Part shown: positions 21,310 through 29,506 of the stretch, in pieces
Position numbering within the stretch: the first letter of the stretch is position 1
Layout of the letters: every line of letters starts with the position of its first letter
Origin: Sulfitobacter sp.
GTDB taxonomy: Bacteria; Pseudomonadota; Alphaproteobacteria; Rhodobacterales; Rhodobacteraceae
DNA: 64,000 nt
Reading direction: 5' to 3'
Assembly: GCA_029252045.1 (NCBI GenBank)
Contig: JAQXCD010000004.1
Span: 5,675 to 69,674, forward strand
Notes under the pieces: model-generated
Seen by the model: only the letters and a program-made list of their open reading frames with translations
What the model was told of the DNA's origin: nothing
Database searches by the model: none
Program-made: the position numbers and the translations under genes

Positions 21310-22047
21310 ATGACAAGGAAATCCGTGGCGATGGAGTTCACGCTTCGTGAAATATCCAAGTTGCGCATAGCTCTGCTGATCTGGGTGACGCTATCAGTTG
21401 TTGCAGCAGTGGCCGGTCCTTTTGGGACGCTCGAGGCGATGGGGCTTGGGGGGCGTTTGGTGTATTGGAGCGGCGTTGTCGGTGTATCCATCGGGTTGAA
21501 CACGGGAGCAAACGGGCTTGCAGAAGGGCGGAGTTTGATTGTCAGAGCCGGGATCGGTGTCGGCTTTGTCTTGCTGTTGTCGACTGGGTTTCACGTCCTG
21601 AACAGTTTGCTCTTTGACATCTGGGATGGCTTTGCGGACTGGGCTTATTTGACGGCGATTGTTGGTTTGGTGACCGCGGCAGTGCATTAGGTCATCTGGG
21701 GTGTTAGGCCGCATGTGCCGGTAGATACGGACGGGCCAAGAGAGGCCTTCCAGCGCCGACTGCCGTTTGAGGTGCGGGCGCCGTTGATCCGGATCGAGGC
21801 ACAGGATCATTACCTGAATGTTGTGACCCAGAAGGGCAACGCACTGATTTTGATGCGCCTCAGTGATGCGGCTGCTGAGCTTGAAGGGCAGGGCATGCAA
21901 GTTCACCGTTCGCACTGGATTGCCCAAAAGGCTGTGACCAAGCCACGCCGCGAAAAAGGGCGCGATATGTTGGTCATGTCCGATGGGGCAGCCGTCCCCG
22001 TCAGCCGCAGCTACCGCGCGGCGGCGCAGCAAGCAGGGTTCCTCTAG
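21310..22047 (+). pseudogene. Membrane-anchored LytTR DNA-binding protein with an internal stop
   Basis: The TM region (21310-21690) and the LytTR domain (EAQDHY, VHRSHW, VPVSRSY; 21715-22047) are in the same frame, separated by TAG at 21688-21690. Confidence 0.8.
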
Positions 22048-22466: not shown

Positions 22467-23129
22467 TTACCTCGGCATTGGAATAGCGGTTGCTGTAGGG
22501 CCGGTTAGCACAGCGATTGCCTCTGGGCGCATCAGAGAACTCAATATGGGTGATTGTGCCCGCAATCCGCCCGTATAGGTGCCGTATGCGGGCAAAATGA
22601 CCCGGTTGCTGTCGATGAGAAAGGCTGGGCGTGTGATGTTACGCCCACTCAGCTCTAATGTGGCTTTCGGGTGGAAATGACCTGAGACCTCACCAATTGC
22701 GGCTTGCCGTGCAATGTGGCGGAAGGTCAGAGGCGCCAGCGGCAACTCCGCCAGATGGGAGCCCCCAAATTCGATTGGCCCCGGATCGTGGTTCCCCTCG
22801 ATCCAGACCCAGCGGCGACCGGCTTGTAAACGGAATACCCAGTCGCGTTCTTCCTGTGGCAGGGAGCGAGCGGCGTCCAGATCGTCGAAGCTGTCTCCAA
22901 GGCAGATAACAGTTCGCGCATGACACAGGGCCAAATCAGCAGCAAGACGGTTTAGAGTGTCACGTGTATCATAGGGTGGCAAAGCTGATCCGCCGCGCCG
23001 AGCAATCCGTTCTGATTTACCGAGATGGAGATCACTGAAAACCATTAAACTTTGTTCTGGCCACCAAAGTGCACCAGAGGCCAGTGCCTTCAGCCCTACA
23101 CCGGAAAGAGTGAAGTCATAACCATTCAT
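22467..23129 (-). CDS. pdeM: Ligase-associated DNA damage response endonuclease
   Basis: SDLHLGK, LGDSFDD, GNHDP and GHFHPK metallophosphoesterase motifs; adjacent to the DEXH helicase. Confidence 0.88.
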   Translation of the reverse strand: MNGYDFTLSGVGLKALASGALWWPEQSLMVFSDLHLGKSERIARRGGSALPPYDTRDTLNRLAADLALCHARTVICLGDSFDDLDAARSLPQEERDWVFRLQAGRRWVWIEGNHDPGPIEFGGSHLAELPLAPLTFRHIARQAAIGEVSGHFHPKATLELSGRNITRPAFLIDSNRVILPAYGTYTGGLRAQSPILSSLMRPEAIAVLTGPTATAIPMPR

Positions 23130-23203
23130 CCTGAATATGTGCCGCAGGCTGTCTCACACCACAAGGGATGAACGATAGGTAGGCTAATGGGGTTACTGTC
23201 GGA

Positions 23204-23399
23204 TTGGGATATGAAAAAGGGTGCAAGGTGGGCCGAGCAGCATTAACGCGTCCTTAACCTTGCTTTGAAATGGTGCAAGGTGCGGTACAGGTATGGGAAC
23301 CGATGGCCGTAAAGGGTGCAAGGCGCGTCGCCTCGGGTGGGTCAAGGCTTTCCTTAGACGCGCCTTCATTCGTTGCTTGCACCCTTTTTCATATCCCAA
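23204..23399. repeat. 196-bp element bounded by perfect 24-bp inverted repeats (MITE/REP-like)
   Basis: TTGGGATATGAAAAAGGGTGCAAG (23204-23227) and its exact reverse complement (23376-23399). Internal GGTGCAAGG occurs three times, plus an inner hairpin AAGGCGCGTC/GACGCGCCTT. Confidence 0.8.
23243..23258 (+). promoter_or_regulatory. CtrA-type box TTAA-N7-TTAAC inside the repeat element
   Basis: TTAA CGCGTCC TTAAC matches the alphaproteobacterial CtrA consensus. Confidence 0.4.
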
Positions 23400-23431
23400 G
23401 AGCAACACTGGCTCTGGGGGTGCAGGTTCCG

Positions 23432-25885
23432 TTAGTTCCCTACTCTCCATTCTGGCTTGTTGGATGGGGGTAGAGTGATTTGCGCTAGGCCGGATGTTTC
23501 CATGAGCTGGCGGGCTTCTTCTGCCAGCAGGCGTTCTTCGGCAGCACCTTTGACAGGGACGCGGCCCATTTCCATAAACATAGGTGCGGCAAGCGGCGTC
23601 ACTTGGCTTAGGGCGAGGTGATCGATGCGTCCCTGGGTGCGTGTCAGCATTTCTTCGACACGACCAAAGTCGACCAACCCATGGAGCGCTTCTTCGCGGG
23701 TGATGTCCAGCATGAGGTGATCGGGGTCGTATTTCGTGAGGGTGTCATAGAGGATATCCGAACTGAAAGTTGCCTGACGCCCTGACTTGCGGGCTTGCGG
23801 GCTATTTCGCTGGATCAAGCCTGCGATGGTAGCGGTCGCCCGAAAGGTGCGTTTCATGACGGCATTTCCAGCCAGCCATTTTTCCATCCCGTTTTGAAGT
23901 GCCTTAGGGTCCAGGAGTGGGATGGGATCGGTGACAGGATCGAGGCTCCAGATAAGAGTTGCATAATCAGTTGCAACAAAACCTAAAGGACCAAGGCCCA
24001 ATTCTTCCATGCGTTTGGTCAGCAGCAGGCCCAGTGTTTGCTGGCCGTTGCGGCCGGCAAATCCGTAGATGACTGTCTGGGCGCGTCCGTCGTGCGGGAA
24101 GCTCTCGACCAGCAAGCGGCCTGGCTGGGGGAGTTGGCTGCGGCTACGTTGTAATTTCAACCAATGAGCTGTGTGATCGGGTAAATCGGGCCAGCAGTCT
24201 TGGGTGAACAAGCGTTGCACGCGCGCGCTGAGTTGGGTGGAGGTGGCGAATTTTGTGCCCATGAAGGTTGCGACTTTGGGTTTCTTTGCGCTGTCACGGG
24301 AGACTTCGACGGTCATCTCGCGCAGGCCTTCGTATTTTACGATTTGCCCACCGATCAGGAAGGTATCGCCGGGAGTGAGGGTCGCGGCGAAGCCTTCTTC
24401 GATTTCGCCCAGTGGTTTGCCGCCGCGGTTACGCTTCAGGCGCACTTGGAGTGTGTCAGTGTCCTGAATGGTGCCGATGTTCATTCTGATGGCGCGGGCT
24501 GTGCGGGGATCGCGGAGCTGCCATTGCCCGTCTGGCCGTTGGATCAGGCGTTGCCAGCGGTCATATGCGCGTAAAGCGTAGCCGCCTGTTGCGCAGAAAT
24601 CGAGGCAGGCGTCAAACTGTGCGCGGGAAAGACCGCTATAGGCTCCTGCGGATGTGACTCCGCGGTAGAGTGTTTCGGGATCGAAAGGACCTGCGCATGC
24701 CCTAATCAGGATATGCTGGCACAAGACATCACGGGGGGCTGCGCCGCGTGGGTCACCGTCAAGTGTGCCGTCCAGCACGGCCTCAAGGGCTGCGATACAT
24801 TCGACAACCTCAAAGCGGTTGGCGGGCACGAGCAAGGCTTTGGATGGTGCGTTGTAGCGGTGATTGGCGCGGCCGATGCGCTGGACAAGGCGTTTGACAT
24901 TTTTAGGGGCGCCGATCTGGATGACCAAATCCACATCTCCCCAGTCAATCCCCAGATCGAGGCTGCCGGTGCAAACAATTGCGCGCAGCTCACCCCGTAC
25001 CATAGCGGCTTCGACGCGCGCGCGTTGTTCGCGGTCTAGGCTGCCGTGGTGGATGCCGATGGGCAGGCTTTCGTCGTTGGCGAGCCAGAGTTTGTGAAAG
25101 AAAATCTCGGCCTGTGCGCGAGTGTTGTGGAAGATCAGGGTTGTGTTGTGGGCTTTGATTTGGTCGAGCACTGCGGGGATAGCATAGGCTGCGCCGCCCC
25201 CGGACCACGGCGGGGGAGCTTTGGTACGCAACATCTGGATGTCTGGGGCGGGGCCGGGATCGGCGAGCAGTATTTCGCAGGGATCGGGGTGGCGGGCCAT
25301 AAGGTGGGCGATGGCGGCGGGGTCCTCGACCGTAGCGGAAAGGCCCACGCGTTTGAGGTTTGGGCATATCGTGTTGAGCAGCGCGAGGGCGAGCATCATC
25401 TGATCGCCGCGCTTGCTCTCGGCCAAGGCGTGGATTTCGTCGATGACGACGCGTTTGAGGCCCGAAAACATCCGCGGTGCGTCCTCATAGCTCAGCAGGA
25501 GTGCGAGGCTTTCGGGGGTTGTCAGAAAGATGTGTGGCGGATCGGCGCGTTGGCGTTTGCGAAGAGTGGCTGTGGTCTCGCCGGTGCGTTCTTCGATCCG
25601 GATGTTCAGCCCCATTTCGGTGACGGGGGCCGTCAGGTTGCGTTTGATGTCGGCTGCAAGCGCTTTGAGGGGGGAGATATAAAGGGTGTGCATGCCTTTA
25701 TGATCCTTCTGCGCCAGATCAATCAGCGTGGGCAGGAACCCTGACAGCGTTTTGCCGCCGCCTGTAGGTGCGATGAGCAGGAGGGCGGGTGCGTCGGCGC
25801 GCTCCAGCATGGCTTGCTGGTGCGGGTGTATGGACCAGCCTTTAGAGGCGAACCAGCTTTGAAAGGTTTCGGGGAGTTTGCACAT
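23432..25885 (-). CDS. Ligase-associated DNA damage response DEXH-box (Lhr-like) helicase
   Basis: APTGGGKT, IDEIHA, GLSAT, HHGSL and QRIGRANH motifs. Start set at MCKLPETFQSWF. Confidence 0.92.
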   Translation of the reverse strand: MCKLPETFQSWFASKGWSIHPHQQAMLERADAPALLLIAPTGGGKTLSGFLPTLIDLAQKDHKGMHTLYISPLKALAADIKRNLTAPVTEMGLNIRIEERTGETTATLRKRQRADPPHIFLTTPESLALLLSYEDAPRMFSGLKRVVIDEIHALAESKRGDQMMLALALLNTICPNLKRVGLSATVEDPAAIAHLMARHPDPCEILLADPGPAPDIQMLRTKAPPPWSGGGAAYAIPAVLDQIKAHNTTLIFHNTRAQAEIFFHKLWLANDESLPIGIHHGSLDREQRARVEAAMVRGELRAIVCTGSLDLGIDWGDVDLVIQIGAPKNVKRLVQRIGRANHRYNAPSKALLVPANRFEVVECIAALEAVLDGTLDGDPRGAAPRDVLCQHILIRACAGPFDPETLYRGVTSAGAYSGLSRAQFDACLDFCATGGYALRAYDRWQRLIQRPDGQWQLRDPRTARAIRMNIGTIQDTDTLQVRLKRNRGGKPLGEIEEGFAATLTPGDTFLIGGQIVKYEGLREMTVEVSRDSAKKPKVATFMGTKFATSTQLSARVQRLFTQDCWPDLPDHTAHWLKLQRSRSQLPQPGRLLVESFPHDGRAQTVIYGFAGRNGQQTLGLLLTKRMEELGLGPLGFVATDYATLIWSLDPVTDPIPLLDPKALQNGMEKWLAGNAVMKRTFRATATIAGLIQRNSPQARKSGRQATFSSDILYDTLTKYDPDHLMLDITREEALHGLVDFGRVEEMLTRTQGRIDHLALSQVTPLAAPMFMEMGRVPVKGAAEERLLAEEARQLMETSGLAQITLPPSNKPEWRVGN

Positions 25886-25982
25886 GGCATGCAAGATAGC
25901 ACTGGAGCGCAAGGGGGCCAGCCCCAATTGGCGCAAGCGCCAATTCCCCCGGAGGATATAGGGCCAAGAAAGATAGAAAAGA

Positions 25983-26777
25983 TCAGCTGCGGGGTTTGAG
26001 GGCTGCGATTGTGCGTTGGACTGTTTCGGGCAGCGAGAGATCCGCGCCGATGGGGGCTGCATCCAGCGCGCTGGCCACGTCTTTTACGAGGATTGCAATT
26101 GTGTTGTCAGGCTCCAGCCCGTCGCGGGCGAATTCGATGCTGTTGAAGCCGGAGGCGAACCAGTTTTGCCCTGACGAAGTGTGGATGAGGTCGAGCAGGG
26201 CACTGGTGTCGAGGCCGGCGTCATCCGCCCAGTCAAGAACCAGGCGCGTCATTGCGGTATTGGAGGCGGCCAGCAGGTTATTAAGGACTTTCGCTTGCAT
26301 GCCGGCGCCATAGTCGCCCATGCGGTGGAAGTGTTTACCCATGGCTTTGAAGAGGGGTTGGGCGGCATCCAAATCCGCTGTGTCCCCGCCGAGCATAAAG
26401 CTGAGCCGCGCCTCTTGGGCGGCAATCTTGGCACCTGACATGGGTGCGTCGATCAGTGCGATATGGGACGGGATACGCGCGCGCAGGTCGCGGACGTAGC
26501 GCGGGGAAAGTGTGGAGCTGATGATGATGCGGATCAGGCTGGGGATGGCCGCGAAATTCTGATCCCCGAAAAGAACATTTTCAGTTTGATCAATGTCGCG
26601 GACAACTGTGATCAGCGTGTCCAGGTCTTCTGAAAAAATCGCGATATCGTCCGTGATATAGGGCGCATCGCTGGGGACAACATCCTAGCCGCTGGCGGGT
26701 AGGCCTGCTGCGCGCAGGGCAGCCAACATTGGCGCACCCATACGGCCGCAGCCGGCGATACCTGTGAGCGAGCGCAT
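25983..26777 (-). pseudogene. NAD(P)-dependent oxidoreductase (3-hydroxyisobutyrate dehydrogenase family) with an internal stop
   Basis: GIAGCGRMGAPM...SG*DVV...IDAPMSG...KVLNNLL in one continuous frame, with TAG at codon 31 (26685-26687). Confidence 0.82.
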
Positions 26778-26781
26778 TGTG

Positions 26782-26970
26782 TTACTTCACGATATGTTCG
26801 TCTTTGACGAACATGTTGGCCCAAGCGCGGTCCATCAGGGCAGGGGACATTTGATATGGAATGCCCTCAAAATCGCAAATGGCGATGATCTGGTCGATCA
26901 GGAAGATCGGTTGGTAGTTGGCGTAGGTGTCAAAATCGTTTATGTATCGCGCTTCAGCGAAAGCAAAACA
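26782..26970 (-). pseudogene. C-terminal remnant of the ATPase usually found at the distal end of Roseobacter tad loci
   Basis: A startless 62-codon frame, ...YANYQPIFLIDQIIAICDFEGIPYQMSPALMDRAWANMFVKDEHIVK*, begins right at the cpaB stop. Family assignment is from memory. Confidence 0.6.
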
Positions 26971-26972
26971 CT

Positions 26973-27824
26973 TTAGTTTGTGCAGGGAATTGGCAGGTTA
27001 ACAACATCGGCGCCGCGGCGGGTCCGGATGGTGCAAACCTTTTCTGCAACTTCTTCTGGCGCTTGAACTTCGTCACGAATATCCAGCAAATCGCGCTGGT
27101 TTACTTCGATATCGCCTGTACCTTCGGAGACATCATCAACACCAACCAGTGCCAGAGACAGGCGGCCAGTCGATTGTGCCTGTGCCAGTGACGCGACCTG
27201 TGTTTGGTCAACAGCCACAGTAACGGTCCGCGCAATTTGGGCGCCTTCTACGTCGCCGGAGCTTTGGTCAACCGCAATCAAGGAGACTTTCGCTTCGATC
27301 AGTTTGGTCACTTCTGTCCGGTTCGAGCCGCCGCCGACTGCGCCGGTCCAATAGATGTCTACGCGGTCACCGGAGCGCAAAAAGCCCGACACGCCGGAGG
27401 ACACGTCAACTTTGATCGCAAATGCACGCATGCCGGGGTCAAGCTGTGAAGTCAGGCCTGCATCCTCACCGGGTTTTGTGATTTTCACGGCGAGCAGGGC
27501 TTCGAATTTCTCGATAGGGCGCAGAACGACGCGCGGCAAATCTGTATTTTCAGGGAAAAGCACTGCGATGTCTTCGTAATATCCTGCGGGCAGGGCTGCC
27601 AAGGGGAAGGGGACTGCCGTTACATCGTCTTTTGTCAGCTTCTCACCGTATTTAAGCGAGCGGGTGGTGACAAAAATGGTTTTCGTTGGGACAATCTGGG
27701 CCTTTTCCGCATCGGCGCGTGCCATTGCGGACTTATATTGCCCGATTTGACCTTTCGCGAGATACACCGCGCCGCCAGCCAACGCGATGCCGACTAACAA
27801 CACGAGTCTAAAAATCATACGCAT
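26973..27824 (-). CDS. cpaB: Flp pilus assembly protein CpaB
   Basis: N-terminal TM helix, SAF-like region, GMRAFAIKVD...GVSGFLRSGDRVD, and G.LSLAL. Confidence 0.92.
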   Translation of the reverse strand: MRMIFRLVLLVGIALAGGAVYLAKGQIGQYKSAMARADAEKAQIVPTKTIFVTTRSLKYGEKLTKDDVTAVPFPLAALPAGYYEDIAVLFPENTDLPRVVLRPIEKFEALLAVKITKPGEDAGLTSQLDPGMRAFAIKVDVSSGVSGFLRSGDRVDIYWTGAVGGGSNRTEVTKLIEAKVSLIAVDQSSGDVEGAQIARTVTVAVDQTQVASLAQAQSTGRLSLALVGVDDVSEGTGDIEVNQRDLLDIRDEVQAPEEVAEKVCTIRTRRGADVVNLPIPCTN

Positions 27825-27944
27825 CTTGTGTTCCTCTTTCGTTTGGATGTCTTGGCGCGCCCGCCAACTACTCGGGCTTCAATCACGATATCCGGTTTTA
27901 TGGCGCCTTCGATCCGCGTTCGGACCGGCGGGCGCCAAAGTGCC

Positions 27945-28145
27945 TTATTGGCCAGGGTTTCGTAACTGGTCCTGATCGGCTTCGGTCAGGTAGGTGCCGA
28001 TGGAAGCGCCCATGGCATCGCTGGATTGTTTGATCGCGACAAAAGCCGAAACAGTTACGATAATGATTGCGGCAGTAAGAACGACCCAATCAACGGTTAC
28101 GGCACCGTCTTCGTTTTTCGTAAAGGAATTGAATTTATGAAGCAT
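27945..28145 (-). CDS. Flp/TadE-like pilin
   Basis: F.KNEDGAVTVDWVVLTAA prepilin motif; ATG at 28145. Confidence 0.8.
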   Translation of the reverse strand: MLHKFNSFTKNEDGAVTVDWVVLTAAIIIVTVSAFVAIKQSSDAMGASIGTYLTEADQDQLRNPGQ

Positions 28146-28257
28146 TTTGACATTTCCGCTGAATGTTTTCGTTACACTGAACTGCGCTAAACGCGACAGG
28201 GGGCTGCATTCCATGCAGAACGCAGCCCCCTGAAGAATTTAGGTGCTTTGGGGAAAC

Positions 28258-28470
28258 TTAGTTTCCAGCAGCCTGCGTGCCGAAGTCAGCCGCGCCAACA
28301 GTCTGTGCGCCGAGGAACGCGCCTGTGTTGGCTGTCATGTCTGCAGCGCCGTCACGGATGGAACCGTAAGCAGCAATCACCAGGCCAACAACAGCAGCTG
28401 TCAGAACAACCCAGTCAACTGTTACTGCGCCGGATTCGTCATTCTTGAAGTTTTTTACGAAAGTCATCAT
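28258..28470 (-). CDS. flp: Flp pilin (major subunit candidate)
   Basis: FKNDESGAVTVDWVVLTAAVVGL; GGAGG ribosome binding site upstream. Confidence 0.85.
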   Translation of the reverse strand: MMTFVKNFKNDESGAVTVDWVVLTAAVVGLVIAAYGSIRDGAADMTANTGAFLGAQTVGAADFGTQAAGN

Positions 28471-28831: not shown

Positions 28832-29506
28832 ATGAAACGCACTTTTCTACCGCTGGCACTGGGTGCCGCGATGGCTTTTTTGCCTGTGGGGGCTGTTGTT
28901 CATGCGGATTCGCCCAAACCATTCGCAGATTTCAAGCCAAAATTCGTAAAACCGCCCAAAGCTGGTGAGCGAAAGCGCGTGAATGTCAAAATAAACCGCC
29001 CCGCTGTGAATGTTACACCGCCAGTTGCGGCCGAATCTGCGGTAGCTGCCGCGCCTTCAGGAGAAATTGCACGGCCCAAGGCAGGACAGTACGATTGGTT
29101 CTGGGATAAAGTATCGCCCGGGCTTGCGCTCGCCGTGATTTCTGTAGAATCGTCGGGGCGCACGGACGCAGTAAGTAGTGCAGGTGCGCAGGGGCTGATG
29201 CAATTGATGCCGGATACGGCCAGTCGCTTTGGTGTGGTTGATAGTAGTGTCACACAGCAAAATATCTCGGGCGGGGTCAAATATCTTGACTGGCTTATGG
29301 GAGAGTTCGCCAACGATCCTATTCTGGTGCTGGCCGGATATAATGCGGGGGAGGGGTCTGTGCGCAAACACGCAGGCGTGCCGCCATTCGCCGAGACACG
29401 TGATTATGTGCCAAAAGTGCTGGCAGCGTTTCAGGTGGCCAAGGGGCTTTGTAAAACGCCGCCCGAGTTGATCTCGGACGGCTGTGTGTTCAATCTGATG
29501 AAATGA
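28832..29506 (+). CDS. Tad-associated lytic transglycosylase (SLT) with a probable in-frame internal deletion
   Basis: VES catalytic motif, GAQGLMQLMP, AGYNAGEG and ETRDYV. WFWDKVSP runs directly into GLALAVISVES. Confidence 0.82.
   Translation: MKRTFLPLALGAAMAFLPVGAVVHADSPKPFADFKPKFVKPPKAGERKRVNVKINRPAVNVTPPVAAESAVAAAPSGEIARPKAGQYDWFWDKVSPGLALAVISVESSGRTDAVSSAGAQGLMQLMPDTASRFGVVDSSVTQQNISGGVKYLDWLMGEFANDPILVLAGYNAGEGSVRKHAGVPPFAETRDYVPKVLAAFQVAKGLCKTPPELISDGCVFNLMK

Follow-up and report, generated by a model that had tools for sequence, protein, structure and literature searches.

This study concerns a 64,000-nucleotide (nt) window of the genome of Sulfitobacter sp. (assembly GCA_029252045.1, contig JAQXCD010000004.1, positions 5,675 to 69,674 of the forward strand; genome G000 below), and specifically the segment at window positions 26782-28470, where the genes of a Tad/Flp pilus locus (tad/cpa locus) appear to be joined end to end across a large deletion. 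Two Flp-type pilin genes (flp1 and flp2), cpaB, an open frame without a start codon, an oxidoreductase gene and a helicase gene follow one another here, all on the minus strand. This order, read from the letters alone in the original prediction, is borne out by open reading frames (ORFs) and profile matches. The first pilin gene, flp1 (28258-28470), is intact and encodes a 70-residue product 80% identical to that of genome G004, another Sulfitobacter; its Pfam match to Flp1_like is weak and falls below threshold (E=0.0045). The second, flp2 (27945-28145), also intact, specifies a 66-residue pilin that is 49% identical to its G004 counterpart over 61 residues. The alignment of the two begins at MLHKFNSF, and ORF calling picks an ATG farther upstream, at 28214. 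The cpaB gene (26973-27824), of the RcpC/CpaB family, is likewise intact (283 residues), ends in a TAA stop at 26973-26975 and is present in a single copy in the genome. Its product matches TIGR03177 with E=2e-58 (197.6 bits against a cut-off of 71) and PF16976 with E=8e-25.

The minus-strand frame that comes next (26782-26972) contains no ATG, GTG or TTG start and ends ...DRAWANMFVKDEHIVK*, its TAA stop lying at 26782-26784. It counts 62 codons when read from 26970 and 64 when read from 26976, and the ORF listing has no entry of 30 residues or more in that frame. On its own the fragment matches nothing in Pfam or NCBIfam. Its residues from about 9 to 64 match the C terminus of open frames of 435-497 residues, with 70-88% identity, in 22 of the 24 congeners searched. 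In G004 the corresponding protein has 435 residues and shows a P-loop signature, though a weak one. Its database entries read "ATPase" or "P-loop NTPase family protein", and its conservation within Sulfitobacter is 86-93%. The part that demonstrably derives from the ATPase gene comprises the last 47 codons (26785-26925), so that the remnant, on the minus strand at 26782-26925, covers codons ~389-435 plus the stop. A genome-wide tblastn search with the G004 ATPase recovers this tail only. Relatives have this gene at full length; here only its terminal part survives, start codon missing, and by homology the fragment is the C terminus of the P-loop ATPase that adjoins the tad genes, as had been proposed.

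The layout of the intact locus is well illustrated by G004 (locus L026), whose genes run scoB, SLT transglycosylase (divergent), flp, flp, cpaB, cpaC, OmpA-like, cpaE, cpaF, tadB, tadC, TPR, TPR, A24 prepilin peptidase, 435-residue ATPase and oxidoreductase. From cpaC to the ATPase this is exactly the order given for roseobacters in the original prediction. Domain content agrees with the names: Secretin, T2SS-T3SS_pil_N and BON in cpaC, ParA/AAA_31 in cpaE, T2SSE in cpaF and T2SSF in tadC. G003, G005, G007 and G002 have the same gene set, and the arrangement flp-flp-cpaB-cpaC-ompA-cpaE-cpaF-tadB-tadC-TPR-TPR-cpaA-ATPase is that of the intact locus in Sulfitobacter and other Rhodobacterales. 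The window agrees with it on both sides, in order and in strand, having scoA/scoB, the SLT gene, flp1, flp2 and cpaB at one end and the ATPase tail and the oxidoreductase gene at the other. Even the distance from the ATPase stop to the oxidoreductase start, 4 nt, is the one found in all relatives. In contrast, the window lacks nine genes between cpaB and the ATPase tail and 388 codons of the ATPase gene itself (approximately 10.5 kilobases, kb, in all), as well as a hairpin that follows cpaB in relatives (see below). Measured against G004, the missing stretch corresponds to L026 3541-14064, that is, 10,524 nt made up of nine whole genes and ATPase codons 1-388. Synteny is therefore conserved on either side of a set of genes present in relatives and absent here.

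Whether relatives share the fused arrangement was examined by searching 1.3 kb spanning the join against 113 Sulfitobacter species representatives (112 besides G000). No match ran across the join in any of the 112 other species; the two halves were always matched separately. In more than 20 congeners with both halves on one contig, the cpaB and ATPase-tail portions lie 10.47-10.64 kb apart (species with a spacing of about 10.5 kb include G092, G117, G089, G044, G082, G088, G109, G113, G047, G005, G004, G003, G118, G049, G084, G103, G007 and G008). Metagenome sequences gave the same picture. Among 80 loci with a cpaB relative, cpaC begins 150-350 nt past cpaB wherever downstream sequence suffices, except on the distant contig L090, and an ATPase tail after cpaB occurs in none. 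L090 (AACY020309984.1), from an ocean metagenome, carries a cpaB relative of 53% identity followed by ~1.3 kb in which cpaC has no match.

At the junction itself, the original prediction had placed the ATPase fragment against the cpaB stop codon with no spacer. The join does fall within ~50 nt of that stop, but 47 nt (26926-26972, minus strand) that match neither flank intervene. DNA homology to the cpaB genes of relatives extends to 26972. From the opposite side, comparison in register with the ATPase genes of 19 relatives gives identities of 0.8-0.9 as far as ~26926-26930, then an abrupt drop to 0.16-0.41, which is chance level, whereas over the same stretch the relatives' ATPase genes are 0.7-0.9 identical among themselves. 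A BLAST extension that would carry ATPase homology into the 3′ end of cpaB (ANSLHKLK aligned with ATLIHLLK) was rejected, the cpaB reading being fully conserved there and the in-register DNA identity being at chance. The 47-nt spacer occurs once in the genome, and none of the loci examined contains a match to it. After cpaB, the 13 closest relatives have 28-48 nt of non-conserved spacer and then a strong GC hairpin (ACGCCGCYCC...GGRGCGGCGT); no such terminator-like hairpin remains downstream of cpaB in the window. The deletion breakpoint falls inside the 47 nt or at their end. They are probably the species' own cpaB 3′ untranslated region or spacer, in which case the left breakpoint would lie about where the hairpin began. 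The pentamer ACGCC occurs both in the 5′ arm of the hairpin in relatives and, at the right breakpoint, within the ATPase codons TAC-GCC-AAC. As the nearest relative is only 80% identical in DNA, naming ACGCC as a candidate microhomology is a guess. The best DNA match in any genome is 80% identical, and the best metagenome cpaB, on a 1.3-kb contig, 82%.

The missing machinery was sought elsewhere in the assembly, which totals 3.08 Mb in 68 contigs, is 90% complete and has the join inside a 79.9-kb contig. Six-frame Pfam searches of the whole assembly found no T2SSE domain (PF00437, motor ATPase CpaF/TadA; 13 of 14 controls positive), and none of Secretin (PF00263, CpaC/RcpA), T2SSF (PF00482, the TadB/TadC platform) or Peptidase_A24 (PF01478, the CpaA/TadV prepilin peptidase), the positive controls working in each case. 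The genus-wide search for CpaF was also without a match in G000. Queried by tblastn with the G004 cpaC, cpaE, cpaF, tadB, tadC, both TPR and A24 peptidase products, the genome returned nothing at E<=1e-3, and the OmpA-like query found only paralogues of 27-39% identity. Two adjacent TadE-like genes survive at G000:C31:147117-147778 and a third flp-like gene at G000:C44:23114-23230; these are further orphans of a once-complete system. Of the components of a functional Tad/Flp (type IVc) pilus, the genome thus retains Flp-type pilins and CpaB/RcpC and lacks the secretin, the motor ATPase, TadB/TadC, the prepilin peptidase and CpaE/TadZ.

The surviving parts are well preserved. The 47-codon ATPase tail is 92% identical in amino acids and 85% in nucleotides to those of the 19 relatives, compared with 90% and 85% for the relatives among themselves, and in that alignment it shows no stop, no insertion or deletion and no change at an invariant residue. 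Over its full length, CpaB is 73.5-74.9% identical to the proteins of five congeners; among those five the range is 74.6-86.6%. Because the ATPase tail, cpaB and the pilin genes show no extra decay, the deletion looks recent on the scale of species divergence. Crude reciprocal tblastn comparisons revealed no genome-wide excess of broken genes (12/109 and 6/60 in G000; 7/63 and 6/67 in controls between relatives). A genome-wide scan for in-frame stops based on GC content at third codon positions, which had no control, returned 397 candidates and was discarded as too noisy.

Other lesions private to this genome lie close to the join. The gene for the SLT-domain lytic transglycosylase (28832-29506, plus strand), divergent from flp, carries an in-frame deletion of 54 codons (162 nt) at 29108-29119, a site where all 27 full-length relatives aligned have 49-63 extra residues. 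In relatives, two direct repeats coding for (K/S)(V/I)SP, e.g. AAAGTATCGCC, are exactly 54 codons apart; the window has a single, KVSP-coding copy (29108-29119). Slipped-strand deletion would account for this configuration. Both the reading frame and the catalytic-type VESSG motif are retained, and the Pfam SLT match begins at profile position 11. On the other side of the join, the HIBADH-type oxidoreductase gene (25983-26777, minus strand) is present after the ATPase fragment as expected, but is itself broken: an in-frame TAG at 26685-26687 replaces codon 31, Tyr in relatives, in a sequence otherwise 83% identical to that of G004. A conserved gene of unknown function farther away (21310-22047, plus strand, 247 residues), adjoining folD, also has an in-frame TAG (21688-21690) at a position that is Leu in a relative. 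Several of the local lesions being TAG codons, read-through was considered and dropped: no tRNA with a CUA anticodon is found among the 39 tRNA genes called by ARAGORN.

Next downstream of the oxidoreductase gene, on the same strand, is the gene for a ligase-associated DEXH helicase (TIGR04121, 1010 bits). A stretch of ~65 nt at the 5′ end of its ORF, just past the oxidoreductase stop (25912-25978), is 80-97% identical to sequences on at least 8 other contigs of genome G122 and looks like a short dispersed repeat. The helicase gene and a 220-residue gene that follows it (22467-26062) separate the oxidoreductase gene from the 247-residue gene, as they do in G019, G121 and G122; in G004 (L026 15015-15123) both are absent at that position.

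Loss of tad functions is rare in the genus: 109 of the 112 other species have CpaF, and those without it are G019, G121 and G122, all small genomes (2.7-3.2 Mb) whose assemblies also miss cpaB and cpaC. In G019 (98% complete, 3.2 Mb), the helicase-scoB gap measures 1.4 kb and contains one flp and a 53-residue oxidoreductase relic (L224/L227, G019:C7:52603-53967); the tad locus, cpaB, the ATPase gene and the SLT gene are gone from the site, an SLT-scoB copy being found on contig C61. Judged from this layout, G019 is an independent and larger loss of the locus. G121 keeps a portion from a partial TPR1 through the ATPase gene, at a contig end. At the start of a G122 contig (L202:1-150, G122:C22), the reading frame passes from the 5′ part of an IS3-family transposase gene directly into the ATPase tail at ~codon 407; the peptide at the contig start has no Pfam match and, in tblastn against plasmids, is 92% identical to IS3-family transposases, which points to a break of the ATPase gene associated with an insertion sequence (IS). 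With the locus cut by contig ends in G121 and G122, tad loss in these two species is possible. G002 (L030, G002:C8) has all the tad genes but with four nonsense codons, namely cpaB Q187 and E234 (TAG), OmpA-like Q219 (TAA) and tadB Y8 (TAG), and the alignment of its tadC stops at residue 284 of 328. What G000 has in common with G019, G002 and G122 is a tad locus inactivated in a genome of 2.7-3.2 Mb; what differs is the type of scar. The scars of G019, G002 and G122 also differ from one another and therefore represent separate events at one locus.

Taken together, these data make it quite probable that the join reflects a real genomic deletion of ~10.5 kb, most simply explained by one event of illegitimate recombination. 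The deletion would have extended from just past cpaB, hairpin included, into the P-loop ATPase gene that closes the tad locus on the far side, as far as about codon 389, removing cpaC, the OmpA-like gene, cpaE, cpaF, tadB, tadC, the two TPR genes, the A24 prepilin peptidase gene and 89% of the ATPase gene. As a molecular event this is an ordinary deletion, or gene loss. What remains (flp1, flp2, cpaB, the two TadE-like genes and the third flp) would allow no processing, assembly or secretion. Because the genome holds no other copy of the removed genes, the pilins are predicted to be orphans, in line with the original prediction and with the genome-wide absence of CpaF, secretin, TadB/C and A24 peptidase, and the cell would be non-piliated. 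With the hairpin gone, transcripts from the flp promoter may run into the ATPase stump and the nonsense-bearing oxidoreductase gene. Some points weigh against the deletion as described. The 47-nt spacer has no identified source in the genome or the loci searched. With the nearest relatives at ~80% DNA identity, the breakpoint is placed approximately and any microhomology is a candidate; of the single multi-kb deletion originally envisaged, the gap of ~10.5 kb stands, with one event the more probable course rather than a proven one. Neither an exact-protein look-up for cpaB nor the metagenome cpaB search found an independent assembly of the species. Finally, in an assembly 90% complete and split into 68 contigs, absence of the genes elsewhere is strong but not absolute evidence.

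Stepwise loss is the best of the alternatives, though an improbable one. The locus could have shrunk by two or more smaller deletions, or by insertion of an IS, IS-mediated deletion and loss of the IS, the 47-nt spacer being the leftover. Such a history would account for nucleotides that match neither flank; the IS3 fusion in G122 indicates that IS activity does strike the tad locus in this genus, and the SLT deletion and the two TAG codons are other small lesions nearby. However, no IS remnant, inverted repeat or spacer repeat copy was found in the genome, and the length of the spacer is compatible with the non-conserved 28-48 nt that follow cpaB in relatives. The undecayed state of the surviving parts speaks against long erosion, and a single event is more parsimonious.

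There is a still smaller chance that the assembler produced the join, or followed a minority variant of the population, and that the organism keeps a full tad locus. The genome has the draft-like or metagenome-assembled character that would permit this, and contig breaks within the locus in two core-lacking congeners possibly reflect strain heterogeneity. Against it, the join is collinear, on one strand and inside a long contig, the 10.5 kb are missing from every other contig, and further private lesions sit directly beside the join. A misjoin by repeat collapse would have had no substrate, because in relatives no long repeat is common to the two breakpoint regions, and G019 shows that such losses do occur in the genus. 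An ancestral short arrangement, into which the tad core was later inserted in relatives, is most improbable. It is effectively refuted by the startless ATPase tail, the remnant of a gene that 22 of 24 congeners have at full length, and opposed by the presence of CpaF in 109 of 112 other species, the conserved order across Rhodobacterales metagenome loci and the persistence of TadE-like and flp genes as orphans.

Attachment of roseobacters to algae and particles is ascribed to Tad pili. For Rhodobacterales, it has been proposed that phycosphere colonisers can be told from putative free-living generalists by whether they carry tad genes (PMC8383342); the same paper, citing Voget et al. 2015, records Roseobacter isolates that have no flp pilus genes. 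Those roseobacters and G000 are alike in having no functional Tad pilus. Unlike them, where the trait is scored simply as gene absence (PMC8383342), G000 displays a fresh scar with intact pilin, cpaB and TadE-like genes, in a genus that mostly keeps CpaF. What G000 adds is a defined and apparently recent scar of deletion whose orphan parts are intact, in a genus where the locus is seldom missing. One may tentatively suppose, at less than even chances, that the tad locus has been lost repeatedly and independently, by different lesions, in the Sulfitobacter lineages with the smallest genomes (G000, G019, G002 and perhaps G121 and G122). A bolder variant would have the retained flp-cpaB module kept for a pilus-independent use. 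The deletion provides a natural knock-out that can be set against intact relatives, and a dated case of lifestyle genes being shed. If repeated loss were true, it would mark a recurring switch, within one genus, from a surface- or alga-attached to a free-living life, of which this genome would be the freshest snapshot.

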